Below are positions 1 to 62,010 of a stretch of 64,000 bases of DNA, piece after piece (positions within the stretch are counted from its first letter, which is position 1; each line of letters starts with the position of its first letter). Origin of the DNA: a phage. The stretch lies in the NCBI GenBank assembly GCA_018093385.1, contig GCA_018093385.1_4808.1; one strand, written 5' to 3'. The position numbers and the translations under genes were made by a program. A model generated the notes under the pieces. The model had not been told where the DNA came from, made no database searches, and was given only the letters and a program-made list of their open reading frames with translations.

Positions 1-83
1 AAAAAAACAATTAACTCCATTTTGAATTAATTTAAATTAATTTTTTTCTACATCCTCATACTTATACTAAACTTATATTTATA

Positions 84-140
84 CGTATCATCCGTAAGAT
101 ATAAGTAAAAACAAAGACTTGCGGCAATACGGATGATACG
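84..140. repeat. 13-bp perfect inverted repeat CGTATCATCCGTA (84-96) / TACGGATGATACG (128-140) with 31-bp spacer, preceded by an AT-rich tract (1-83); copy A of an iteron-like element
   Basis: Read directly; same arms and spacing recur at 16034-16089. Confidence 0.8.
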
Positions 141-315
141 TCACGATACGCTTCAACCAGCCAGCAGCGGCTAAGTCATTGATTTGCATAACAAGCGGCA
201 AAAGGGATGGATTTCTTTTATACGTATCAAACAGTACACCACGCACCACGGTCCGCAATTCTATTTGCACTATGATTTGTGTATGTTTATAGCCATAATG
301 AACATCAATCTGCAC

Positions 316-344
316 TTGAATATAATGTCCATCCATTGTATAAT
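316..344 (+). promoter_or_regulatory. sigma70-like promoter TTGAAT-N17-TATAAT upstream of TerS-like gene
   Basis: Consensus hexamers with 17-bp spacer; first 14-bp repeat sits near predicted +1. Confidence 0.5.
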
Positions 345-364
345 TCACACTATTAATTTGCACT

Positions 365-853
365 ATGGGATTTTGCACTATGAGTCAAGATTATGTAGCG
401 ATGCCTGAAGACTTTGAAGACCCGCGATTCGCAGAGCACAATCAGGCTTTATTCGATGAGTTCATTGACCTTGTTATTCAGGGCCATGACATGCGCGCAG
501 CTTTTGCACTAGTATTTGGAATGGAAGTTGCAACGGATAACTACACTGGCCAGCGAATCCTTTGCGCGCAACGCAATCCATACTACAAAATGCGCTTCAA
601 AAAGCGTATGGAAGAGATGCCACTCAAGGATTTGTGGAGCGTAAAAGGCGCAATTCACAATTTGGTTAAGCTTGTGCGTGATCCAGAAGTCGCGGCGTCA
701 GCCAAGCTTAATGCGATTCGTGAACTGAATATCATCTACGGCATCACGATGATTGACGAAAACGGTAACAGCAAGATGGGCCGTTCTATGGACGATTTCT
801 ACAAGGATTTTGGAGAGGCGGCCAAAGAAGGAGAGCAATTCTCCCGCCACTAG
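365..853 (+). CDS. Terminase small subunit-like DNA-binding protein (putative); start may be ATG 380
   Basis: HTH-like N-region and C-terminal AASAKLNAIRELNIIYGI resembling the conserved TerS segment; embedded in repeat array. Confidence 0.45.
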   Translation: MGFCTMSQDYVAMPEDFEDPRFAEHNQALFDEFIDLVIQGHDMRAAFALVFGMEVATDNYTGQRILCAQRNPYYKMRFKKRMEEMPLKDLWSVKGAIHNLVKLVRDPEVAASAKLNAIRELNIIYGITMIDENGNSKMGRSMDDFYKDFGEAAKEGEQFSRH

Positions 854-967
854 CCAATTTGCACTATGAAACGGCCCTAGAACACATTGCCTCCACTTCT
901 AGGGCCATCGGTAATACGACGGGGAAGGTTGCAACCGTAAACGCGTTAGAAAGTGTATTATTATAAG

Positions 968-1231
968 TCATCTTTTAGTCACCTTACGTAACAATTTACG
1001 ACCTTCAACCGTCCAATCGAACGATTCCACCAGCAGATTCGCACTATAACCTAAGACGATGCGCCCTTTCTCGTTATCGACCCGCCAACAAGTCTCGAAT
1101 AGCATTCGATTTGCACTATTAACTATTGCCGCAACTCGCGTAGGATAAGCGCAATTTGCACTATGGTCGTAAAGGGATAAGGTGCGACCACTTCCGATGG
1201 ACAACGTAGCGATGAGAATGAGCGTGTTCAT
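968..1231 (-). CDS. Hypothetical protein (weak; overlaps repeat array)
   Basis: 87-aa ORF, modest SD. Confidence 0.3.
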   Translation of the reverse strand: MNTLILIATLSIGSGRTLSLYDHSANCAYPTRVAAIVNSANRMLFETCWRVDNEKGRIVLGYSANLLVESFDWTVEGRKLLRKVTKR

Positions 1232-1281
1232 AAGCCACCAATTTGCACTATGAAAAGCGACCCCGAAGGGCCGCCATTCGA

Positions 1282-1908
1282 TTAGATAATCTGGAAGGTG
1301 TAGGACTTGTTGCCGAACTCGAAGTTCAAGCGTCCAGCTTCTTTAAGCTTCATGCGGAAGCGAATATGCTTGCTATCCGGTAAGCCCAGCGCGGCGAACG
1401 CTACGCGGACCGATTTGAACTCTCCTACACCCTCGACCATAACGCCGTTACGGGTGAGACGCTTTTGCGCCACTTCCTTATTATCCCAACTTTTTGCAAT
1501 ACCTTCGCTATTCGAACGGCGATGGGAAGGAGTGCCATTTTGCACTACGCAATTTGCACTATCGTTCAGGCCGCTTTTAACGAAGGCTTCATACTCTTCG
1601 TCGGTCATCGCATCGAGTTCTTCCTGAGTCGGCTCGGCCTTTTTAACGACCGCACGCGCCTTATGCGTTTTTACATCGCTGGACACTTCCTCGCGCGGCT
1701 TCGCGTCGGGAATGGGCGATTCGTTGGACGGCTCATCGAGCGCGTTTAAGGACTCGATTAACGCGATTACGCGAGTCTCGGCGGTCCGGCGGTCCGCAAA
1801 CTTCTTAATCGGTTTTGAGCCGGAATTTGCATTATAGAATGCAACGAGGTCGACGGTCTTAGTTGCGATAACGTCGCCGCTAGTCGAGAAACGATTTAAG
1901 CTAACCAT
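1282..1908 (-). CDS. Hypothetical protein
   Basis: 208-aa ORF with AGGAG SD 6 bp upstream of ATG. Confidence 0.55.
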   Translation of the reverse strand: MVSLNRFSTSGDVIATKTVDLVAFYNANSGSKPIKKFADRRTAETRVIALIESLNALDEPSNESPIPDAKPREEVSSDVKTHKARAVVKKAEPTQEELDAMTDEEYEAFVKSGLNDSANCVVQNGTPSHRRSNSEGIAKSWDNKEVAQKRLTRNGVMVEGVGEFKSVRVAFAALGLPDSKHIRFRMKLKEAGRLNFEFGNKSYTFQII

Positions 1909-1988
1909 AATAAACTCCTATTTGTTAGGGCGCTAGGCGCGAAAGAATTTTATTAAAGCGCCGCGCACGACGCTCTAAAAATCCTCTC

Positions 1989-2273
1989 TTACGCTTCGAC
2001 GAGGGAGAAGGTCTCAAATTCTTCTTCGCCCATAACGAGTAAGATATTACCGATTTCGACCGCTTCGAAGAAATATCCGTTAACGTTTACTTCGAAGGCT
2101 TCGCGGTCCGATTCCGGTAACGCCGCGTAAAGTTTAAAAGCCTCGGCGACCGTTACCCCACCAGCCTCGATAGTTTGGTCTACGTTCGCGGCGTAGACTT
2201 CGGATAAAATTTGTTTTACGCCGTAGTTCTCGACGATAGCGTTACGGATAGAAGAAACGTTAAGAATAGCCAT
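1989..2273 (-). CDS. Small hypothetical protein, paralog family member 1 of 3
   Basis: 94 aa, AGGAG SD; related to 2499-2801 and 2909-3199 products. Confidence 0.55.
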   Translation of the reverse strand: MAILNVSSIRNAIVENYGVKQILSEVYAANVDQTIEAGGVTVAEAFKLYAALPESDREAFEVNVNGYFFEAVEIGNILLVMGEEEFETFSLVEA

Positions 2274-2342
2274 TTTAAACTCCTAGTTCTCGACGGGCGT
2301 TAACGACCTATTCGTTAACTCATCCCGTCCCGATATGAGTAC

Positions 2343-2370
2343 ATTATAATATAGTGTAGAAAAAAGTAAA
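2343..2370 (-). promoter_or_regulatory. Promoter TTTACT-N16-TATAAT driving 1989-2273
   Basis: Shares core aaaagtgctttact...tacact...tataatgt with the promoter at 2813-2841. Confidence 0.5.
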
Positions 2371-2414
2371 GCACTTTTTCGATAAAAATGAGATAAATTA
2401 TTTTATCTTTTTTC

Positions 2415-2442
2415 TTTACTTCTTCATACACTCGCGTATACT
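2415..2442 (+). promoter_or_regulatory. Promoter TTTACT-N16-TATACT driving 2499-2801
   Basis: Same promoter family as 2343-2370 and 2813-2841. Confidence 0.5.
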
Positions 2443-2498
2443 TGTTTATATCGAGACGGGCGATGGCCCTTCCTTCTACTAGCATCGGGAGTTTTATT

Positions 2499-2801
2499 AT
2501 GACCACTTTAATCTCTTCTATCCTTACTTACGACGAAGACCGTTTAACCGTTCGCTCTCTTATCGCCGCCGTTAACGCGGAACTAGAATCCACCATTATT
2601 AAGGTCCGCGCGGTCGCTTTCGTCGGCCTTTCCTTCGACGATATTAAGTACGCCGAACGTAGCGCCATCCGCTTCGCGAAGACCGACGACGAAGCCGTTA
2701 CCCTTATCGAGACGGTTACGCCGCGCGGCGAAGCGTTAATTATCGTCGAGTATATCGACGTAGAAGGCGATAAGGCTTATAAATATTTTATTGCAGAATA
2801 A
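2499..2801 (+). CDS. Small hypothetical protein, paralog family member 2
   Basis: 100 aa from internal ATG with GGGAG SD; ORF track gives a longer 2442 start. Confidence 0.5.
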   Translation: MTTLISSILTYDEDRLTVRSLIAAVNAELESTIIKVRAVAFVGLSFDDIKYAERSAIRFAKTDDEAVTLIETVTPRGEALIIVEYIDVEGDKAYKYFIAE

Positions 2802-2812
2802 CGAAAAAGTGC

Positions 2813-2841
2813 TTTACTTCTTCGTACACTAAGACTATAAT
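2813..2841 (+). promoter_or_regulatory. Promoter TTTACT-N17-TATAAT driving 2909-3199
   Basis: Consensus hexamers; third member of repeated promoter family. Confidence 0.55.
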
Positions 2842-2908
2842 GTTTTATATCGAGAGGGGATGAGGTAGCGAATAGGTCGCTACCCGCCCGACCAACTAGG
2901 AGATTATT

Positions 2909-3199
2909 ATGATTACTTTAGCCGCTATCCGTTCCGCTCGCGTCGAGACTTCCGAAAACTCTAACGTATTTGGCGAAACCTTAGAGAGCGTTTATCTCTC
3001 TAACGTAGACGCAACTATCGAACCTATTTATGAGCCGATCAACTTCCTCGACCTTTACAAGTATCGCGACGAGGACATCGTATCATCCCGCGTAACGATT
3101 AACGGCTTCGTCTATACGATTACCGAAATCGGCGGCGAATATCTCGCTGTACCGCAACTCGGCGGCGAAGTAACTTATTTTAAAATTGTCTCCTTATAA
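2909..3199 (+). CDS. Small hypothetical protein, paralog family member 3
   Basis: 96 aa, AGGAG SD. Confidence 0.55.
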   Translation: MITLAAIRSARVETSENSNVFGETLESVYLSNVDATIEPIYEPINFLDLYKYRDEDIVSSRVTINGFVYTITEIGGEYLAVPQLGGEVTYFKIVSL

Positions 3200-3219
3200 T
3201 ATCCTTCCGTTACTAATAG

Positions 3220-3244
3220 GCCGCGCTTAGTCGCGGCTTTTCTT
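3220..3244 (+). terminator. Rho-independent terminator (GCCGCG-loop-CGCGGC followed by TTTTCTT)
   Basis: GC stem plus T-run directly after stop of 2909-3199. Confidence 0.6.
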
Positions 3245-3895
3245 CGTCCCTATCTCGATGCGCTTCTCCGCGAAAACTCCTTTATCCTTCCCTTCGTCGT
3301 CGCATAATCTTCGTCGAGATGCTCCTTAGTTCGCATAACAGGTATTACGTTAAATGGAGAACATCGCGTAAGTCCTTGTTTTATATAGACACCTATATCG
3401 GACCGTTAAGGCGGGTCGCGTAAGTCGTTGTTTTATAAAGGTGCAAAACTTTCCCTTCGTTCCGAACTAAAACGAGAAATATGCCGACCCTTCGCCCGAA
3501 AATAGTACGCATGCGAAATTACACGCATCTAGAATAATCCCCACCGATATTATACTACACGCAATCATTCGCTTTCGAATCATTATGCTTCATATTATTG
3601 TGTATCGAATCATTCGCTTTCGAATTGTAACGCTGGAAACTGTAACGGCGATTGATTATTGCGTTCGTGTGGTTTTTATGGCATGGGTCTTTTGGTGCGT
3701 TTTGGTACTTGATGAAATTTGCAGTACACTAATCAAAATACGACACATTTGGTCCACTAACTTTTCAAGAAAAAGTCCTGGACAGTACCGTACTATTTTG
3801 TGCCCACAGTAAATTTGCAGTACACTCCTGCGCGGCAGGCAAAAGAAAGGGCCGCCACAGCGACCCACGATTCACGGTTAAATCAGCAACACCCA

Positions 3896-4291
3896 CTATT
3901 CGCTCTTATGGGCATCACCAAAGCCATCCGCAATCTGGCTGATCAATGATTCAATGGACACAGTTTTACCAATTGATCGAGCGGTAATAGCAAGCATATT
4001 ATCAATCAAACCATGATTGGATGCATATGGTCCAGGTTTTGAATCATCTTCAGGACAACCAAAAAGCTGGTCGCGCAAACTTTCGAGAGAACGCTCAATA
4101 TTTTCCAGCTTCTCTTCTAAATCAGATTGGCGACGTAAAACCCATGTTAAGTCTCGGTTGCCGACTTCCAACCCATCAGAATCGCAAGCTGGAACGTCAA
4201 TTTTGATGCTGCCACCAAAGGCCATTCCGCTGCCTTTAGTATATGTGTTGTGAATAGAATCATTCTTATTTGACATATCATTACCTTTCAT
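3896..4291 (-). CDS. Hypothetical protein (start may be second ATG at 4276)
   Basis: 131-aa ORF. Confidence 0.45.
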   Translation of the reverse strand: MKGNDMSNKNDSIHNTYTKGSGMAFGGSIKIDVPACDSDGLEVGNRDLTWVLRRQSDLEEKLENIERSLESLRDQLFGCPEDDSKPGPYASNHGLIDNMLAITARSIGKTVSIESLISQIADGFGDAHKSE

Positions 4292-4349
4292 GAGGGTGAT
4301 TAACTTGAATTATAATAAAGCCGCATGGCGCGGCATTCAAATCGATTTA

Positions 4350-4598
4350 TTAATTGTGACGATTTGATTCATCAATCGATACCAATTGTGCAGGGTCGCC
4401 GGATACCGTTGCGCCGACGATACCCATCTGAGAGAAAAATTCTGAATAGACTTCTTTCCAGTACTTGCGCGCTGCTTCCTGGGCTTGACCTTTGCGCTTG
4501 AAGCTTTTGCCTTGAAAGATGAAACGGTCACTTGTCGCGCGATACTCCACCACGCCTTCCAGCCATTGTAAGAATGCTACTGATTCATTTTGATTCAT
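4350..4598 (-). CDS. Hypothetical protein
   Basis: Internal ATG with GAGGT SD; longer ORF-track version overlaps upstream gene. Confidence 0.4.
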   Translation of the reverse strand: MNQNESVAFLQWLEGVVEYRATSDRFIFQGKSFKRKGQAQEAARKYWKEVYSEFFSQMGIVGATVSGDPAQLVSIDESNRHN

Positions 4599-4605
4599 GT
4601 TAACC

Positions 4606-4998
4606 TCAAAGGTCCAAGAAAAATTTAAGCCAGCTTTCCGCAATCTCGCGGCCAGTAGCCAATCGGTCTGTCTTTTCCATAGGTCTGCACACGCCACAGG
4701 GTAATCCTTTCTGTAGGCGTGTACTATTGCCAATTTTTACCCAAACTTGGCCAGCTTGGTCGACATAAGCTTGGCAACCCATGATTTCGAGTCGTTGTAG
4801 ACACTGGCGAATCGTTTTCAGCTTCTCACCGGACCGGATAGAGCGCGGTCGCGACCGCTGACCGTTTTTATTCACTGTACGCTTGGCGACCGGAATATCA
4901 TTGGTGCGCTGCGGCTTGGGTCGGTAATAAGCCTCTTCGCCAGGAGTCGCACCTGGCGTCAGTTCACGCTTAAGCGCCTTTTCAATGTCTATGATCAT
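4606..4998 (-). CDS. Hypothetical basic protein
   Basis: 130-aa ORF, Arg/Lys-rich N-half. Confidence 0.45.
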   Translation of the reverse strand: MIIDIEKALKRELTPGATPGEEAYYRPKPQRTNDIPVAKRTVNKNGQRSRPRSIRSGEKLKTIRQCLQRLEIMGCQAYVDQAGQVWVKIGNSTRLQKGLPCGVCRPMEKTDRLATGREIAESWLKFFLDL

Positions 4999-5092
4999 AA
5001 TTTATGCCGCAGCAGCATGAATTATTGCGTAAACAATTCCTAACAGGGCGACAACGCAAATCGTGCCCCAAAATGCAAAGCGCCGTGCCTCT

Positions 5093-5299
5093 TTATCCAT
5101 TGTCCACTGCTCCAATATCCGTTAAGAACTCGTGCAAAGCACCTTTCTTGTTGAGTTTTTGCATAGTCTTGATATCATCAAGTGATATACTTTGATCGCT
5201 TTGCTGTTTATCAATGCAAACAAGACTGCCTTTGGCCTTGATGGTCATGCCTTTGGCTTCGATACTTTTTACAAAATCTGACAACACTTTAATTTCCAT
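5093..5299 (-). CDS. Hypothetical protein
   Basis: 68 aa, GGAGAAGG SD. Confidence 0.45.
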   Translation of the reverse strand: MEIKVLSDFVKSIEAKGMTIKAKGSLVCIDKQQSDQSISLDDIKTMQKLNKKGALHEFLTDIGAVDNG

Positions 5300-5579
5300 T
5301 AGAGCCTTCTCCGCTGTTAATGTTGTCCAGAATCAAGGTCGGAATTTCATCTTGAGTCCTGACTTTGTAATGAGAAGGCATCTTGCTTTCTAACAATGCC
5401 TGTTCGGCTTCTCCCTTTGTCTCAAAGAGCGGGATGCACCAATCAACTGCGTTGCCATGTTCATTGCCTGTAACGGCTTTCAAAAAGACAAGGCGTTTGT
5501 CTGCAGGGTCGATGCCGCAAATTAAGTATTTTGGAAGAGCCTTTGCTTTCTGAGCCTTATCAACATCTTCAAATTTCAT
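5289..5579 (-). CDS. Hypothetical protein
   Basis: 96 aa, GAGGTG SD. Confidence 0.5.
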   Translation of the reverse strand: MKFEDVDKAQKAKALPKYLICGIDPADKRLVFLKAVTGNEHGNAVDWCIPLFETKGEAEQALLESKMPSHYKVRTQDEIPTLILDNINSGEGSNGN

Positions 5580-5660
5580 AAATCACCTCACTTGTTAACG
5601 TATAATGAGTATAACTTAATTGCGCATAAAGTAAAGGCGCTTTTCAGCGCCTTGAGTGAA

Positions 5661-7994
5661 TTATTTCGCTGATTTCAGCGCGGCTATCTCTGCCTCTAGT
5701 GATTCAACCTTTTTCATCAACTCCTGCACCACGTGCATCGTGTCAAGAAGCATTGGAGTTGTGTCTAGTTGTTTTTGTTCAACCTCTACGCCTTCGCTCG
5801 GATAGAATTTCACCGTTTTTACATACAACGGGTCAATAATCTCTGCTTGTTGAGCGATGACACCCCTTCTTACCCTTTCCTTTTCATCATTGTTGTAAAT
5901 AAATGTCACATATTCCAACGATGAAAGGTTGCTCCATGCTTTTTCAACCGTTCCTGGCTGTATGTCATGCTTCAAATTCTCATCAGAGATGGCATTCTTT
6001 TGAAGAGTATAAAAGCTATCTGATCCAAGAATTGATACAGAGAAAAACACATCATGAGAGTTAGGCTGTATGTTCATCCTTGTCTGGTACTGCGCATTAT
6101 CATCTCCAACGACGAGCCAAGTGCCCTGCGCAAAACTTCCGTTATTGTTGTGGATCAAACCGTGGTGAAGCGTTGTGGCATAACCTGTATCAACCTGTTG
6201 ACCGCCGCTAAAAAGACTGTTGAAAGCATAGTTTTGACCCATTGACTGTCTCACCGTTGCATAGGTGCCGATTCTTGTTCCAGTCTCACTCCAAGACATT
6301 AAGCTTCCATATCTCGCGGCGAATCTGTCGCTGCTAAGAGTTCCTGCATCATCAAATGCAAGGTCTTTAGTCACCCCTTTTGTTTTATTGTACACAGACA
6401 GTATTGCATAATAAAATCCATCCATGTATGCATCGCATCGCAATCCGGCATCAGCTTCAACAACAGTACCAATTTTGTATTGTGCCCTTACTTGCCCTGA
6501 AGACCCCTTAACCCCAGAGCCTGGTCGAACAGAATCCGCATTGATAACTGACCATTGCGTATTCGCGGCAACAAAGCCACCAGATGCACGAATCACCCAA
6601 ACACCGACAAAGTTGCGCGGCACGATTTCAGCCGCTGATCTTCCGTATACAGGGCTTGATCGAGAAGCGTCAAAGTTTGTTTGTATGAATCTTGAACCAG
6701 AACCTGCTGCTGCTGGAGAGTCCCCAGAAGTGATCGACTGAAAAGCGCCATTAGTCGCCACCTGACTTGGCGCAGAAGCCAACGTGACCATTGTGCGCGG
6801 CGCGGAGTAAGTTATATTTGGTGCACCTGACTCAGAAACGACTCCATTTGATGATGGATTGCCTCCATCACCTCGACCGAACAGGGCCTGAATAGAACCC
6901 GTCTGCACGCCGTTTCGGTCCGGCACACGAAATGTTGTCGTTCCGTTACCTAAAGAGTATTTACCGCGTTTCGCTGGGTCCGCTAACCAATCTGCATCTG
7001 CAATAGGTGAAAGCATTTGCGCATACGCCCAAAGTTCAGGCCAGTCAGCGCGGTTTAACAACTGCCCATCAGCAACGACTTCATACGGTTGAATATAAGC
7101 ACGGCTGTCGCGTAAGTGGAAGTCACCGACGCCATAGTTCATAACGCCGTTCATACTTGGTCCAACGGTGCCTGTGTTTACTAAGTTCTCAACCCAACGC
7201 TTGGTCGCGGCATCATGATCGTTTACTGGGTCACCAGCAAGCGGTGTTGCACCTTGTGGACGAATATTCAACCATGCTTGCGCATTGTCGGCTGACCCTG
7301 TGCCGCCCATAGAAGTCGGAACGATGTTTTGATCAGCGACTGTGCCAAATCCAAAAGCGGACTTCATACCCTGAATGGTAGTTTGGCCTGTGCCGCCGTT
7401 GGCGACTGGGATTATGCTTGACTCGGAATAAATCATGACCCAAGGAGACCACGTGCTATTTTGAGCGTTGAATCTTCTTTGGTAAGTATTGTTAATGGAA
7501 TATGATGTGTATTTTTGAATGCAACTTTCGGTCGATACTCCTGTTTGCAACACCTCTAAGACTCCTGCTTGTTCAACAGGATAGTTCAATCCAAAAGAGG
7601 CGGCGCCATCAGAGTTCTGATAATATTGCCCAAACCAGCTGCCGGTAAGAGCATTAAGATTCATGCCGGAAGGAACAGTGCCAAAATTTCGCAAGGTATT
7701 GGTCAAAGTCGCAGCAGTTGTTCGAATGGAAAGCATGTCACCAGCCGCCCATGCACGCGCTGCAGTTCCTTCCTGCGCACGCTGCACGGTTAGCACGTTT
7801 CCAACTACGGCTGTTACTGTGACGATTTCAAATTGGAGGCCTGTTGCAGCGTCGACGATTGTCGCCACTACACGCTCGTTCGCGGCCAAGGTCGGAAAGC
7901 CCGACCCTGAGCGGATTGTGATTGTGGTGTCTGAAGTCGTCGTTGGCTGGGCAAGCGCGACCTCAAAGTTGTTTTTGAATATTAGCCTTGGCAT
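5661..7994 (-). CDS. Tail fibre/tailspike protein with C-terminal intramolecular chaperone (peptidase S74-like) domain
   Basis: C-terminus LKHDIQP...GVIAQQAEIIDP...coiled-coil tail matches the self-cleaving chaperone module; Gly/Ser/Thr-rich body. Confidence 0.7.
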   Translation of the reverse strand: MPRLIFKNNFEVALAQPTTTSDTTITIRSGSGFPTLAANERVVATIVDAATGLQFEIVTVTAVVGNVLTVQRAQEGTAARAWAAGDMLSIRTTAATLTNTLRNFGTVPSGMNLNALTGSWFGQYYQNSDGAASFGLNYPVEQAGVLEVLQTGVSTESCIQKYTSYSINNTYQRRFNAQNSTWSPWVMIYSESSIIPVANGGTGQTTIQGMKSAFGFGTVADQNIVPTSMGGTGSADNAQAWLNIRPQGATPLAGDPVNDHDAATKRWVENLVNTGTVGPSMNGVMNYGVGDFHLRDSRAYIQPYEVVADGQLLNRADWPELWAYAQMLSPIADADWLADPAKRGKYSLGNGTTTFRVPDRNGVQTGSIQALFGRGDGGNPSSNGVVSESGAPNITYSAPRTMVTLASAPSQVATNGAFQSITSGDSPAAAGSGSRFIQTNFDASRSSPVYGRSAAEIVPRNFVGVWVIRASGGFVAANTQWSVINADSVRPGSGVKGSSGQVRAQYKIGTVVEADAGLRCDAYMDGFYYAILSVYNKTKGVTKDLAFDDAGTLSSDRFAARYGSLMSWSETGTRIGTYATVRQSMGQNYAFNSLFSGGQQVDTGYATTLHHGLIHNNNGSFAQGTWLVVGDDNAQYQTRMNIQPNSHDVFFSVSILGSDSFYTLQKNAISDENLKHDIQPGTVEKAWSNLSSLEYVTFIYNNDEKERVRRGVIAQQAEIIDPLYVKTVKFYPSEGVEVEQKQLDTTPMLLDTMHVVQELMKKVESLEAEIAALKSAK

Positions 7995-8032: not shown

Positions 8033-8374
8033 TTAATTTCTTTTGAGAGGAATATGACGGTGGCTGCCATTATTTGGTTTAATAATGAGCATAAAAACGA
8101 TTAGAAAGATGATGGCTGATATACTTAATTCAATCAGCGCGGCTTGAGATATAGATTGATCTTCATGATACTGCTTTTGCATTTCTGCTTTCTTCTGAGC
8201 GCAAACTTCAGGTGATATGTAATCGCCTTTTGAGTTGCCATAATAAATTTCGCCATTCTCAGAAATAAGCCTGCCGCAAATATCCGTTTCAGCCTGTGCG
8301 CTTGACATCATAATAACAGTTCCGATGATAGCGGCGATAGTCCAGATTAACAGTTGTGATAAAGTGTTGTTCAT
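8033..8374 (-). CDS. Secreted/membrane-anchored small protein
   Basis: Start MNNTLSQLLIWTIAAIIGTVIMMSSAQA with AGAGG SD; C-terminal hydrophobic segment. Confidence 0.5.
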   Translation of the reverse strand: MNNTLSQLLIWTIAAIIGTVIMMSSAQAETDICGRLISENGEIYYGNSKGDYISPEVCAQKKAEMQKQYHEDQSISQAALIELSISAIIFLIVFMLIIKPNNGSHRHIPLKRN

Positions 8375-42884: not shown

Positions 42885-44408
42885 TTAATTCATCTTTTTG
42901 CCGTCGAGGATGTGATCAGCAAGCATAGATTTCATGCTCAGTGAACGCTGAATTTCTTCGTCGATGGTATCAACACCAATAAAATCAACATACAGCACGC
43001 TTGATTTGGTGCCGATGCGGTGATTTCGGTCTTCGGATTGTTTGCGCAACTCGTTGTCATAGTTGCAAGAATAATAGATTGCCAAGTCGGCGGCGGTAAG
43101 CGTGATTCCGATGCCTGCCGCTGCAGCGTGACAAACCAAGACTTGCGTTCCACCGTTCTCGACTGTGTTTTTCTGGAAGTCATCAATCAAGAACTCGCGC
43201 TGCTCTTTTGATGTTTCACCGTTGTACACACCAGTGACCACGCCTTCAGACTCAAGCCAATCCTTAATCTGGTTCATCTCTTCCTTAAAGATGGCCCACA
43301 CAATGAATTTGCGCTCTGGGTCGTCTTCCAGCACCCCTTCCACATAGTCCTTAAAGGCCGTGAATCGTGGGTTGTCTTCCATGTAGACCATCTCATCATA
43401 CACCTTAACAAAGCCTGATGTCACCTGCTTCATCTTAGTGCGAGATGCGATCATCTCAAACTTAACGTTTTCTTCTTCGCCTTTGTACTCCATCAGATAG
43501 TTGTACTCATTCTTGAGTTCATCGTAAACATCGCGTTGTTTAGGCGACAACTCGAAGTCAATAAACTTGTACACCTTCTCTGGAAGGTCCGGCAAGTATT
43601 CCGCTTTTGTCGCACGAAAATAGTGCGGTTCCATCAGCCGGATAAGCTTGTCAAGGTTCTTGTACATCGGTCGGCCAAACTGGTCTTTGCGCGGCACTTG
43701 CGGAATCCCATAGCCATTGCCGCCGATTTTCTTGAGAATGGCCTGCATCTCTGGGTCGTGCGCTTCAAGTAGCACTGTGAATTCAGAGTTGAATGCACGG
43801 AACGATTTGGTGCCAAGCAAGCCAGCTTCAAGGAAGTGGTATTGCATGTAAATATCAGCAGGCGAGCGTGGCAGCGGCGTACCAGAAAGGATTCGACGGG
43901 CCTTTGCCAGCCGTCCCAATTCCACAACCTTGATGGAGCGTTTGGCTGTGTTATTTTTGATACGCGTCGATTCATCAATGATCATCAAACAGCGGTATTT
44001 CTTCAAGACCGACTCAATGTGTTGATAACCGACTGGTGTGTTGACGGTGTCAATGTTGAATGAGAAGATGCGCGCAGGCACTTCGCCTTCAGGGTAGTGA
44101 TCAGCAAACATCTTCTCCCAAAGCGCCTTGCCCTTTTTAGTCTTCATCTTGTCATTGCCGCGCCAGTAATGACCAATCCATTTAATGGAAAGGTGCTCTG
44201 GTGCTTCACGACGAATCCAGTTTGAGTGTACACCGTTAGGAGCGATTACAACCATGGCATCAAACGCGCCAGCAGTGAAATGCTTTTCAAACTCTGCCAA
44301 AGCAGTCCAGGTTTTGCCAAGACCCTGTTCCATGAAATAGGCAAAGTATTTTCTGCGGCCTGCTTTATCAAGCGCCAATAATTGGTGGCGCATTCCTTGT
44401 GTTTTCAT
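42885..44408 (-). CDS. SNF2-family helicase
   Basis: GLGKT Walker A, DEST Walker B-like, helicase C-region. Confidence 0.8.
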   Translation of the reverse strand: MKTQGMRHQLLALDKAGRRKYFAYFMEQGLGKTWTALAEFEKHFTAGAFDAMVVIAPNGVHSNWIRREAPEHLSIKWIGHYWRGNDKMKTKKGKALWEKMFADHYPEGEVPARIFSFNIDTVNTPVGYQHIESVLKKYRCLMIIDESTRIKNNTAKRSIKVVELGRLAKARRILSGTPLPRSPADIYMQYHFLEAGLLGTKSFRAFNSEFTVLLEAHDPEMQAILKKIGGNGYGIPQVPRKDQFGRPMYKNLDKLIRLMEPHYFRATKAEYLPDLPEKVYKFIDFELSPKQRDVYDELKNEYNYLMEYKGEEENVKFEMIASRTKMKQVTSGFVKVYDEMVYMEDNPRFTAFKDYVEGVLEDDPERKFIVWAIFKEEMNQIKDWLESEGVVTGVYNGETSKEQREFLIDDFQKNTVENGGTQVLVCHAAAAGIGITLTAADLAIYYSCNYDNELRKQSEDRNHRIGTKSSVLYVDFIGVDTIDEEIQRSLSMKSMLADHILDGKKMN

Positions 44409-58100: not shown

Positions 58101-59771
58101 ATGTCAATTAATAATGACAATCTTCCAGAGGATACAGGTGATGAATTTGGTGCAATCTTTGACGAAATTCAAGATGCAGGCGTTTCGGAAGAAATGCAGG
58201 CAGCAGAGCAGCAAGGCACCAGAGCTAAAATCAGCCTTCAACATAAAGCTGTTGAAAAAGATTCAGAGCGCATGGAATGCTACGGTGAAGAAGACTTGGT
58301 TGAAAGAGCACGCTTGCTCGCCTCACTTCAGGTAATCAAGTTCCCTCACTACAAGCCTACCAAAGATGACTTCGTTCTACAGGCAGACCGGACGAGTGAC
58401 ATGAACCGTTATGCGGTGTTCGACGCGTTGTTTGATAAGGGAAGTGGCGTCGTTCCATTCCCTCACAAAGATACTTTTCGTGGGCGCTTAGTCGACCATC
58501 GCGGCGAAACATTCACCGACCGTACTTTGGAAGTCACAGAGATAGTTGCCGCTGTCGACGCAGCAGGATTGTCCAACCCAAACTCACGTCAGGTCGCTCA
58601 ATCCTATAAGGAATGGGCCATGCGTTATCAGCGCGACGACCTGATGGACTTCTTCTACAAGAAGCTGCCTGAATGGGACGGTACTGCGCGCATCGAGAAA
58701 TACCTTATCGAGCTATTCCGACCGTTCGATACAGAGTTAAACCGACAAATCGGTGTGTATTTTTGGCTATCGCTCTACAACCGCCTGACCAACCCTGGCT
58801 GTCAAGCGCCAATCTCCATCGCGCTCATCGGCGGCCAGAATGCAGGGAAGAGTTATTTTAGCAAGCTGCTTTGCGAAGCTATTATGAACGACCGCCACGC
58901 AACACCGATTCCGTTGAACTTAGCCGCGCAAAACTTCAACCCGTTCTTGCGAGCTATTACGGGTCGCTCAATTATCGCGAACGTTGGCGAGATGACAGGC
59001 TTTAAAAAGGCCGACATCGAAAACATGAAAGCATTCCTGACTAAGACGGAAGATGACCTGGACTTCAAATTTGAAGATACGCAGGTTAAACCACGCCAGT
59101 GGATTGCTATCATGGACGGCAACGAATACGCAGGCATGCAGCGTGATGACACGGGCAACCGTCGTGTGTACCCTATCTTTGTTGGCCAACTCGCCGACAA
59201 GGACGGGCAACCGAACTGGTCGAAAGATTTCCAAGCTGACCTTTCCACTTTGAAAGAAGACGTTTGGCAGTTGATGGCTGAGTGCGCTGCATGGATGGAG
59301 AAGCACGGCGAAGCAGGTTACAATGCATTTGTTGGTGAAACATCTCGCATGCTTACTGAGTTTAGTAAGAACGAAATGGAACGTGCGCGCGGCGTTATTC
59401 GTGATGAGATGGTGGACAACGACCTTGTTGAAGTCGTCATCACCGCGCCTTATGACCGACATCACAGCGGACGCTGGCACATCACCAGTGGTGCTATTGC
59501 TATGGGATTCAGAGCGAAGTGTGGCAAGTCGCCTTTCTCTCGTACCCTTGCGCCGCACATGTCGAAGCTTGGTTTTGAGCCTGCAACCTATCGCAACCAG
59601 CGCGGGTACTTTACGCCGCTGATTAAGAATGAAGCAGGAGAATACATTTCTGATTTGATGACCATCTTAGCGTATCTTATCCGCGATGAGTCTGACCCTG
59701 AAGATATTGAATTCTTGAAGAAGGTTATTGAGCGTAAACGTTCTTTGGGAAGAGATAAGGATGAATTCTGA
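58101..59771 (+). CDS. VirE-like P-loop NTPase (primase-associated helicase-like)
   Basis: Walker A LIGGQNAGKS; GGAGG SD; follows primase-polymerase gene. Confidence 0.55.
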   Translation: MSINNDNLPEDTGDEFGAIFDEIQDAGVSEEMQAAEQQGTRAKISLQHKAVEKDSERMECYGEEDLVERARLLASLQVIKFPHYKPTKDDFVLQADRTSDMNRYAVFDALFDKGSGVVPFPHKDTFRGRLVDHRGETFTDRTLEVTEIVAAVDAAGLSNPNSRQVAQSYKEWAMRYQRDDLMDFFYKKLPEWDGTARIEKYLIELFRPFDTELNRQIGVYFWLSLYNRLTNPGCQAPISIALIGGQNAGKSYFSKLLCEAIMNDRHATPIPLNLAAQNFNPFLRAITGRSIIANVGEMTGFKKADIENMKAFLTKTEDDLDFKFEDTQVKPRQWIAIMDGNEYAGMQRDDTGNRRVYPIFVGQLADKDGQPNWSKDFQADLSTLKEDVWQLMAECAAWMEKHGEAGYNAFVGETSRMLTEFSKNEMERARGVIRDEMVDNDLVEVVITAPYDRHHSGRWHITSGAIAMGFRAKCGKSPFSRTLAPHMSKLGFEPATYRNQRGYFTPLIKNEAGEYISDLMTILAYLIRDESDPEDIEFLKKVIERKRSLGRDKDEF

Positions 59772-60418
59772 TGAATAAAGCAATCAACATCGCTAAATTC
59801 TTTCAACATCTTGGTGAACTGAACAAAGAAAGTGACGTTCACGGCGAAGAAATGAACCGAATGATCTCAACCGTGTTGCGCGGCTTTGGTTATGATAAGG
59901 ACTCAATCACTTGCAAGCGCACAAAGCTTGTCGATGAGTCTTATCTTTACTACGTAGAGCTGCGCATTGGGAAAGATGTGATGATCATTGACCCTAAACT
60001 GGAAGGGGCGCACTGTTTTGGCGCTCACCCTCGTGCGAGTGAATTCAAGGGTCGCGGTCGCAACCGAATCCAGAAGCTTGATGATGCAGGCGACTTGAAC
60101 ATTGCAATGTTCCTCAAAGAGTTCCTTGCTCTTCCAAAGGTTGCATCATCCACGGGCCGCGATGACCCTTGCAAGATTGGCTTCAGAACTAAAGATTTGC
60201 GCAATGCGCTACGCAAGAAGGGATTTGTGCCTTCTTATGACAACGTCGCCGCGCTGATGGCTTCAATGGAGGAAGCTGAAGCGATGGACAAGGTGCGCGG
60301 CTATTTCCTGAATACAGGCTTCACCATGTATGAATGGCACACGAAGGGATTGACTGTCGCCGACTTCATCTATTCATTAGAGCAGAAGTATGTACGCAAT
60401 ATGCAGGCCACAGGATAA
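59771..60418 (+). CDS. Hypothetical protein
   Basis: 215 aa, overlapping start. Confidence 0.5.
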   Translation: MNKAINIAKFFQHLGELNKESDVHGEEMNRMISTVLRGFGYDKDSITCKRTKLVDESYLYYVELRIGKDVMIIDPKLEGAHCFGAHPRASEFKGRGRNRIQKLDDAGDLNIAMFLKEFLALPKVASSTGRDDPCKIGFRTKDLRNALRKKGFVPSYDNVAALMASMEEAEAMDKVRGYFLNTGFTMYEWHTKGLTVADFIYSLEQKYVRNMQATG

Positions 60419-61132: not shown

Positions 61133-61140
61133 GTTGAAGA

Positions 61141-61361
61141 TGAGCAAGAAAACCCTTAAGGCTGGCGACCGTATCCGTTGGGTGTCAGGACAGCACATGC
61201 GTGCGGGCACCATCCTTGAGCTGGATGAATACCTTACCGATTCTCGCGGTCGCAATCATTACCGTGTAAGAATCGATACAGTAAAAGAAGATGACAAGTC
61301 AATGGTTGGTGAAGTGGTCATCGTTACTCCACGTCAAATTAAGGCGGCTTGTGAAGCATGA
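61141..61361 (+). CDS. Hypothetical protein
   Basis: Internal ATG of ORF 60975-61361. Confidence 0.4.
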
Positions 61362-61513
61362 ATAAATATCAATTTAGCGATAATAAAATCAGTAAGGCGG
61401 ATGCAATCAAGCAGCTTCGTCGCGTACTTGAAGCCAGCGGCCATACGAAAGAGCGTGCACGCGTCCTAGCCAAAGAACATTATAAACGTTTTGTGTCACA
61501 AATCAGAGGTTAA
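61358..61513 (+). CDS. Small hypothetical protein (51 aa)
   Basis: ATGA-coupled; below ORF-track cutoff. Confidence 0.35.
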   Translation: MNKYQFSDNKISKADAIKQLRRVLEASGHTKERARVLAKEHYKRFVSQIRG

Positions 61514-61515
61514 TT

Positions 61516-62010
61516 ATGATCATCCATCGCCCTTTAATGTTAAAGAAAGAAGAAGCTAAAGAAATTTTACACGCATTGAGACGTGCAGAAGCAGATGTTA
61601 AACTTCGCGTAAAGGTAAGAGGCTTCATTATGAAGCAGTTCGAAAGTGATGATGTTGACTATGCCATTGATGAATTGCTGAAGCGCAACGTCAAGGGTGC
61701 AACAAGACCTATTTACCATCAATCTCGTTGCGTACAAGCTCCTATCAAGACTTATGTTGATAAAAAGCCGCGCCTTAAGCCTGTTCCGGCTGATAAAATA
61801 GAAGTCGGTGATGTTATCGTCTGCGTCTATTACGGCAGTCAGATTTTCAATGCTGTTGTAGTAAGACGATACAGTATAAACGGCTGCCAATACATGGAAG
61901 TGACAAACGCAAAGAAAGAACCTGGCAGCTTGAACGTGGCTTACGCATTAAGGGAATTCAACAGTCCTTCTTGCACTCTTTATAAGGTACTCGACCATGG
62001 CTCATGTTAA
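61516..62010 (+). CDS. Hypothetical protein
   Basis: 164 aa. Confidence 0.5.
   Translation: MIIHRPLMLKKEEAKEILHALRRAEADVKLRVKVRGFIMKQFESDDVDYAIDELLKRNVKGATRPIYHQSRCVQAPIKTYVDKKPRLKPVPADKIEVGDVIVCVYYGSQIFNAVVVRRYSINGCQYMEVTNAKKEPGSLNVAYALREFNSPSCTLYKVLDHGSC

Follow-up and report, generated by a model that had tools for sequence, protein, structure and literature searches.

A one-way motif array in the terminal repeat

The DNA analyzed here, referred to as the window, is the whole 64,000-nucleotide stretch of a phage genome (GenBank assembly GCA_018093385.1, contig GCA_018093385.1_4808.1). One copy of a long direct terminal repeat (DTR) lies at its left end, and near the start of this repeat are the small terminase gene, terS, and two genes on the opposite strand encoding an 87-aa and a 208-aa protein. 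The first 2 kb of the repeat contain about a dozen copies of a 12-13 bp word, ATTTGCACTAT, on one strand only. This motif array is the subject of the present analysis. The 33 phage records that window bases 1-6000 matched, with identities of 90-95%, are all Wifcevirus myoviruses that infect E. coli or Shigella; the source of the window is a Wifcevirus, a myovirus of E. coli.

A search of the 64 kb for the 13-mer AATTTGCACTATG with up to two mismatches returned 11 matches, ten of which lie at 262-1836, all on the + strand, and one of which is a stray at 43306. None of 100 shuffled controls reached 11 matches (mean 2.9, maximum 7). The exact 8-mer core TTGCACTA is found ten times in the 64 kb, always on the + strand and within 265-1561, against an expectation of 2.6 per window, and the same motif families were recovered independently by a repeat search. 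When the degenerate copies at 1036 and 1824 are included, the array comprises 12 sites between 262 and 1836, with the consensus cAATTTGCACTATg and the invariant core GCACTA (Table 1). All 12 copies lie on the + strand within ~2 kb of the left end, separated by irregular gaps of 14-355 bp over a total span of 1.6 kb.

An earlier note, made from the letters of this DNA, had reported ten 14-bp repeats in a single orientation. The common orientation is borne out (10 of 10 exact cores on the + strand), and so is the placement of the copies upstream of, inside and downstream of the TerS gene and through two opposite-strand open reading frames (ORFs). The count of ten is slightly generous for a 14-bp repeat, as the exact 13-mer is present only four times (355, 856, 1153 and 1240) and the remaining copies carry one or two mismatches. 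The degenerate copies at 1036 and 1824 were missed there or lie outside the range that was given for the array. A genome-wide count, proposed as a check for local enrichment, found the motif to be strictly local rather than scattered, with 10 of 10 cores in 1.3 kb of the 64 kb.

Five of the 12 copies are located in non-coding DNA or the terS leader, one in terS, three in the 87-aa ORF and three in the 208-aa ORF. Selection therefore acts at the DNA level, as the copies occupy non-coding DNA and also genes, three in number, on either coding strand; an artefact of repeats within a protein is ruled out on the same ground. The array was mentioned in no paper found in our literature searches, and an Rfam scan of window bases 1-4200 on both strands gave no match at E <= 1.

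Table 1. Motif copies, genes and other features in and around the terminal repeat (window positions unless another record is named).
Feature	Position	Strand	Sequence	Basis or remark
Motif copy 1	262-274	+	TATTTGCACTATG	Upstream of terS; other Wifceviruses keep only GCACTATG
Motif copy 2	355-367	+	AATTTGCACTATG	terS 5' leader; supplies ATG at 365
Motif copy 3	370-382	+	ATTTTGCACTATG	Supplies ATG at 380, probable terS start codon
Motif copy 4	501-513	+	CTTTTGCACTAGT	Exact core, inside terS; encodes AFALV of putative helix-turn-helix
Motif copy 5	856-868	+	AATTTGCACTATG	Intergenic; directly 5' of terminator hairpin 872-906 between convergent genes
Motif copy 6	1036-1048	+	GATTCGCACTATA	Degenerate, in 87-aa ORF; abuts reverse-complement Chi CCACCAGC at 1027-1034
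Motif copy 7	1108-1120	+	GATTTGCACTATT	In 87-aa ORF; orthologous copy in Kyle and PA1; minus strand encodes NSAN
Motif copy 8	1153-1165	+	AATTTGCACTATG	In 87-aa ORF; motif search
Motif copy 9	1240-1252	+	AATTTGCACTATG	Intergenic; between 87-aa ORF start and minus-strand terminator hairpin
Motif copy 10	1537-1549	+	ATTTTGCACTACG	Variable linker of 208-aa ORF
Motif copy 11	1551-1563	+	AATTTGCACTATC	In 208-aa ORF; 14 bp downstream of copy 10
Motif copy 12	1824-1836	+	AATTTGCATTATA	Degenerate, in 208-aa ORF; motif search
DTR, left copy, ~3.7 kb	19-3692 (right end approximate)	.		Identical ends in WFH; PhageTerm in Mansfield
Two overlapping sigma-70-like terS promoters	299-344	+	TGAACA-16-TATAAT and TTGAAT-17-TATAAT	Consensus scan only
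terS, small terminase, 157 aa	380-853	+		phmmer match to 7UXE; phrog_4783; annotated TerS in Mansfield; alternative ATG 365
87-aa ORF	968-1231	-		Signal-peptide-like N-terminus, two conserved cysteines; homolog found only in Kylevirus
208-aa conserved protein, phrog_4730	1282-1908	-		Adjoins terS, on the opposite strand, in every PB1-like genus
Perfect 14-nt inverted repeat	83-96 and 128-141	.	ACGTATCATCCGTA / TACGGATGATACGT	65-123 bp inside the cut
Cut-flanking repeats	Window 83-141; WFH locus 4508-4528, 4650-4715; Kyle locus 5400-5690; PA1 locus 4000-4330; PCSE1 locus 360-720			
Element past the right DTR boundary	Window 3715-3735, 3811-3826 (twice); Kyle 3622-3647; PA1 locus ~8160-8185		GTACYTGG..AAATT(T)CA..GTACACTAATCA	

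The array adjoins the packaging cut

The extent of the terminal repeat was established from related genomes. Base 1 of the Mansfield, WFH and Ro157lw records corresponds to window base 19. The WFH record holds both copies of the repeat, its first 3,701 bases being identical to its last 3,701 with zero mismatches, and the 18 bases that precede the right copy in WFH are identical to window bases 1-18. For Mansfield, a DTR of 3673 bp was obtained with PhageTerm. The right boundary was set in the window through homology with WFH. Together, the end identity in WFH and the 18-base match place the left DTR from 19 to ~3692, and the motif array is thus located wholly within it. The first motif copy lies 243 bp inside the left boundary, so that the array adjoins the packaging-initiation cut; packaging does not initiate elsewhere, an outcome that the earlier note had named as telling against its proposal. 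All DTR members examined have the terS start ~310-380 bp inside this boundary.

The direction of packaging was assessed with JG024, a headful-packaging Pbunavirus, for which published long reads begin at 59,376 (the pac end) and an extra XbaI band of ~15 kb was described. The JG024 record has the terS start at 59,977, 601 bp downstream of the published pac end, and the nearest XbaI sites lie 14,627 bp rightward and 20,954 bp leftward of that end. The ~15 kb band therefore fits only the rightward fragment (14.6 vs 21.0 kb), which indicates packaging from the cut rightward through terS. By homology with JG024, the DNA that carries the array in the window, immediately inside the cut, probably enters the capsid first. 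In JG024 itself, the published pac end (59376) falls within gp77, and several Pbunavirus records begin ~590-600 bp ahead of terS, in agreement with that pac end.

Conservation in related phages

Homologs of the window TerS were collected from 359 phage records and 27 IMG/VR loci. Among the TerS-carrying relatives checked, the motif array is present only in Wifcevirus and Kylevirus. In Pantoea phage Kyle, with a DTR of 3,603 bp, 14 copies of GCACTA are found at 477-1478 of each DTR copy, all on the + strand; in the remaining ~66 kb the same hexamer occurs five times on the + and 12 times on the - strand. The TerS of Kyle is 41% identical to the window TerS by alignment and 43% by tblastn. Pantoea phage PA1, also a Kylevirus, has a TerS 60% identical to that of Kyle and carries 13 copies, all on the + strand, at +270 to +1145 from the terS start, with the consensus aATTTGCACTAtg.

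The positions of the copies vary between the two genera, with one clear ortholog as the exception (window 1108, Kyle 1078, PA1 +740). This copy is 13/14 identical between the window and Kyle, within a protein that is only 28% identical. In the 208-aa protein, copies 1537 and 1551 fall in a variable linker prone to indels, a segment that is replaced in ECML-117. The conserved ortholog, the linker placement and the shifting positions together speak for selection on the DNA word, on how many copies there are and on their orientation, rather than on fixed positions. Viral contigs were also scanned for pairs of copies no more than 32 bp apart, a criterion that would miss arrays spaced as in Kyle. 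Among the matches listed, the array was found only in Wifcevirus; the other matches listed were unrelated low-GC coding or tandem repeats.

Genes and other repeats of the region

The product of terS matches the small terminase of Pseudomonas phage E217 (PDB 7UXE) with a phmmer E-value of 6e-34, and the call of a TerS-like gene in the earlier note was correct. As also noticed there, two motif copies (355 and 370) supply the candidate start codons, ATG 365 and ATG 380. The start at 380 is the likely one, judging from Mansfield, in which a ribosome-binding site and a start codon are annotated at the equivalent position. The two predicted promoters end upstream of these copies, at 326 and 344, which places copy 355-367 and copy 370-382 in the leader and start codon of terS. 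The placement of the motif at the start codon is not conserved in Kyle or PA1.

The three motif copies in the 87-aa ORF share one reading frame, all with the pattern xAT-AGT-GCR-AAT, and impose three SAN tripeptides on a product that, from its sequence features, looks secreted. The 208-aa protein consists of conserved N- and C-terminal domains with a variable linker between them. It had no match in Pfam, NCBIfam or a PDB profile search, and a homolog search returned near-identical sequences only; it could be an unrecognized partner of the packaging module. The annotation of Bas100, a well-curated Wifcevirus genome, lists neither a phage RNA polymerase nor a sigma factor or recombinase.

Further repeats are located at the cut itself. 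Two direct copies of ACGGATGATACG lie just outside the cut in WFH, and another direct copy is present in the region. The cut-flanking repeat differs from phage to phage: it is ACGGATGATACG in the window and WFH, AATATCCGAA in Kyle and TAAACCGTT in PA1, and PCSE1 has about fifteen copies of the AAATATCG / ATATAACGG type. Blocks that are common across the genera (TGCGGCAAT and CAGCGGCTAA) are found 100-170 bp inside the boundary, and a conserved block GCGGCAA is located close to the cut-flanking repeats. At the other end of the repeat, the GTACYTGG element lies 23-24 bp past the right DTR boundary in Wifcevirus and Kyle, with a similar element in PA1, and may guide the right-end cut. It was considered as a relative of the motif, as it starts with AATTTGCA in the window, but this part differs in Kyle and PA1, and the element is therefore separate from the motif. 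Also just past the DTR, the 7-bp unit CGACCCA forms six tandem copies in Mansfield (3843-3884) and essentially one in the window (~3860-3870).

Among the small genes of the DTR, promoter, leader and ribosome-binding-site segments recur as direct and inverted repeats of 19-36 nt (1897-2460 and 2799-2948), and a 94-aa and a 96-aa DTR protein resemble acidic paralogs. The small genes with these recurring segments may be early, possibly anti-defense, cassettes.

Packaging proteins as candidate readers

Given the position of the array, which surrounds terS immediately inside the packaging cut, an assembly of sites bound by a packaging-related protein is the single most likely reading, although we hold it loosely. 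A role in terminase recognition is plausible, with the terminase or TerS as the putative reader and with proposed functions in initiation and in termination. In such a scheme, orientation-dependent DNA sites with the core GCACTA would identify the initial ~2 kb of the repeat to the packaging machinery. On the concatemer, the TerS ring together with TerL would load on the same-oriented sites just right of the left DTR boundary, and this loading would fix the position and the direction of the initiating cut and of translocation. Through the two copies that cover the leader and start codon of terS, the bound protein would also be able to limit terS expression. In the next DTR copy, the array could inform the arriving motor of its entry into the terminal repeat, ahead of cutting at the right boundary.

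Repeats that all point the same way are what a rotationally symmetric TerS ring would be expected to read, and the homologous TerS of E217 is a decamer. The TerS proteins of the three motif-bearing phages furthermore share a clade-specific basic patch, (Q/R/K)RN, vs ESN in other relatives.

Several observations weigh against this reading and against TerS as the reader. The 1.6 kb span and the irregular spacing (14-355 bp) are, to our knowledge, wider than in any characterized TerS site, and the array is not compact to a few hundred base pairs as pac- or cosB-type sites are. The core GCACTA is invariant in the window, Kyle and PA1, yet TerS is only 41-42% identical, and the putative recognition helix differs among the three (DMRAAFALVF, DETTALRVVF and EELTAMRIAF, respectively), so that the site does not change together with the TerS DNA-binding domain across relatives. 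The phage-specific repeats that flank the cut appear to be better candidates for a co-evolving terminase recognition or cutting site than the invariant GCACTA. E217 TerS is reported not to have bound DNA to any appreciable extent in vitro. The array is absent from the Pbunaviruses (E217, JG024 and others), XcP1 and BcepF1, from Salmonella phage PCSE1 and uncultured relatives, and from the Myosmarviruses TropicalSun and MTx, though the latter genus has a DTR of ~3.56 kb. Motif-free relatives with this TerS include Serratia and Erwinia phages with a DTR, and the Myosmarvirus case indicates that this terminase family can make a DTR without the motif. Kyleviruses do not share the placement of copies over the terS promoter. 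Finally, across seven Wifcevirus genomes the motif columns are 82% invariant vs 89% for their flanks, but the divergence among these genomes is so low that this comparison adds nothing.

The proposal of the earlier note, that the repeats are TerS recognition sites, therefore stands in part: the TerS is real, the motif is local and the cut adjoins the array, but the recognition helix diverges, TerS carriers without the motif exist and the span is wide.

A Chi-like signal for DNA-end processing

Less likely, in our estimate, is that the array acts in the manner of Chi, as a polar signal for recombination or for the processing of DNA ends. A translocase of host or phage origin, such as a helicase-nuclease, would enter at the left end and read the bottom strand, 5'-ATAGTGCAAAT-3', whereupon degradation would cease or the terminal repeats would begin to recombine and so form concatemers. 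This suggestion draws on clusters of true Chi sites (CCACCAGC on the + strand, the reverse complement of GCTGGTGG) that are found at the same place and in the same orientation in sister phages. Kyle has nine such sites at 255-1972 vs six in the other ~66 kb, and PA1 has seven from -140 to +1432 relative to the terS start. In TropicalSun, five lie within 500 bp after terS (61135-61640), with one other copy genome-wide, and MTx has four at 179-1276. The Myosmarviruses thus carry Chi only (4-5 sites), the Kyleviruses both arrays, and the window mostly the motif, with 12 motif copies and only two Chi reverse complements in its DTR (1027-1034 and 2158-2165). In the enterobacterial DTR relatives, the clusters are confined to the first ~2 kb of the terminal repeat and have almost no counterpart elsewhere in the genome. 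The permuted Pbunaviruses showed no such cluster of either E. coli Chi or the proposed Pseudomonas Chi.

The motif has the same polarity as these true Chi clusters, a single orientation relative to the nearby DNA end, and by the established polarity of Chi, RecBCD coming in from the left end of the genome would meet the clusters in the orientation that it recognizes. Signals for moving enzymes typically show strict polarity whichever way the genes run, uneven spacing and copy positions that turn over, and the invariance of the motif would suit a conserved reader. Recombinases are not annotated in these phages, as checked in Bas100, and end-clustered Chi sites have been documented in phages without recombination modules (PMC12315714).

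On the other hand, no enzyme is known that reads GCACTA or TAGTGC, and the bottom strand CATAGTGC matches the RecBCD Chi GCTGGTGG at only 4/8 positions and is not a RecBCD Chi sequence. The Kyleviruses keep both arrays, and the motif is therefore not a simple replacement of Chi. With rightward packaging, the left end would be the last to enter the cell, so that a leading end in need of protection is less obvious, and the co-location of motif and Chi may only reflect that both need proximity to an end.

In a more specific form, which we consider rather unlikely, the motif would be a second end-proximal polar signal in parallel to Chi, read by a translocating enzyme from the left end, be it of the host or a conserved phage enzyme. 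Its reading would switch the phage DNA from degradation to recombination or replication through the terminal repeats. The series from Myosmarvirus (Chi only) through Kylevirus (Chi and motif) to Wifcevirus (mostly motif) would then represent one signal replacing another.

Other sequence-specific proteins and rejected candidates

About as likely as a Chi-like signal is that the array consists of sites for another conserved sequence-specific protein, of phage or host, that regulates or organizes the early DTR region, for example as an operator or roadblock on terS, as a titration sink or as a nucleoid-like scaffold. The copies at 355-382 lie in the terS leader just past the two sigma-70-like promoters, the DTR has several strong-looking promoters and small, probably early genes, an asymmetric site of 12-13 bp fits binding by a monomer, and the invariant core fits a well-conserved reader. 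However, no copy is found at the other DTR promoters (2343-2442, 2813-2841 and 3549-3623), the overlap with the promoter is missing in Kyle and PA1, and operators need no uniform polarity across 1.6 kb. No DNA-binding domain was detected in the DTR proteins by Pfam, NCBIfam or PHROGs, or in the proteins that only Wifcevirus and Kyle share; nine proteins common to these two and missing from TropicalSun have no informative domain. The restriction of the array to Wifcevirus among the matches listed in the viral-contig scan (copies within 32 bp) also speaks against such a protein. The earlier note had offered titration of a transcription factor as its alternative, which gained no specific support: only the 355-382 copies overlap the promoter region, and this is not so in Kyleviruses.

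A replication origin, in which the copies would be iterons that load a phage primase or helicase, is improbable. The repeats are direct, an AT-rich stretch is present at 19-80, and in Pbunavirus a primase gene ends ~370 bp ahead of the pac end. The spacing is irregular (14 to 355 bp) without helical phasing, though, and the copies are dispersed through coding DNA rather than forming a compact block. No initiator protein was identified, the Wifcevirus primase genes lie ~9 kb or more from the array, and relatives with the same replication genes are without the motif.

Very improbable is a cluster of host DnaA-box-like sites, which have been proposed for the injection-stop region of phage T5, with eight DnaA boxes in its terminal repeat (bioRxiv 10.1101/866236), or of sites for another abundant host protein that holds or pulls the entering DNA. 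TTTTGCACT matches the relaxed box TTWTNCACA at 8/9 positions, but the best-conserved motif positions (G before CAC, TA after it) are irrelevant to DnaA, the copies match the box at 7-8/9 in the window and at only 5-6/9 in Kyle, and the last box position is always wrong (T, not A). True DnaA boxes were rejected, as the conserved positions, G-CAC-TA, are not the contact positions of the box.

Promoters for a phage polymerase or sigma factor were rejected as well, as neither protein is annotated in Bas100, seven copies run antisense to genes and the motif is not followed by a consistent -10 element. The motif resembles the sigma-54 element TTGCA and the T4 MotA box aTTTGCTTtA (8/10), but the partner elements are missing at the required spacing. 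RNA pairing between the terS leader and the leftward mRNAs is possible in the window and is probably a by-product of a polar motif that spans convergent genes.

Comparison with known systems

Due to its position, the array was compared with characterized signals at phage DNA ends. The lambda cosB site, with the gpNu1 sites R1-R3, is similar in that its short repeats separate the cut, cosN, from the small terminase gene, Nu1, and are on the first-packaged side, a side that for the array is assigned by homology. It is made up of three 16-bp sites in ~120-200 bp, in mixed orientation and assisted by IHF, and its cutting leaves cohesive ends. In contrast, the array has 12 sites in one orientation over 1.6 kb, runs through genes and lies in a 3.7 kb DTR, with TerS as its putative reader.

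In P22 (gene 3), Sf6 (gene 1), SPP1 and P1, the recognition DNA of the pac site overlaps the terS gene as the array does, and the pacL and pacR boxes of SPP1 and the hexamer arrays of P1 likewise consist of several short repeated boxes. These sites are compact (~22 to 270 bp) and serve headful packaging, whereas the ends are fixed here and separate repeats flank the cut itself. The SRL and SRR elements of T7 are also short imperfect direct repeats tied to a direct terminal repeat. Their 7-bp units are located in non-coding DNA just outside a 160-bp repeat, unlike the 12-13 bp unit of the array, which lies inside a 3.7 kb repeat and within genes.

The terminal Chi clusters of phage LLS and its relatives (PMC12315714) resemble the array as a short polar word at one end in a single orientation. 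They differ in that the motif is not Chi, and in that the active orientation in LLS faces the terminase-opened end, whereas the array faces the left, probably first-packaged end. The left terminal repeat of T5 (bioRxiv 10.1101/866236) likewise has conserved repeats inside a long terminal repeat with early genes, but its elements lie in a large untranslated region and comprise inverted repeats, palindromes and canonical DnaA boxes.

Implications

The choice of the cut site and the duplication of the repeat are poorly understood in long-terminal-repeat phages outside T7, and the array provides an unusually clean handle on both: a short, invariant, one-way word just inside the packaging start that is conserved in two genera. 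Motif-bearing phages can be rebuilt from synthetic DNA (PMC11074155). If the terminase reads the motif, recognition would be dispersed and polar, unlike the compact cos and pac sites known. If it does not, the Chi clusters of the sister phages would point to a new kind of signal at phage DNA ends. Such an end signal, if it exists, would bear on how fast-growing, restriction-resistant phages of the therapeutic type survive the nucleases of their hosts.

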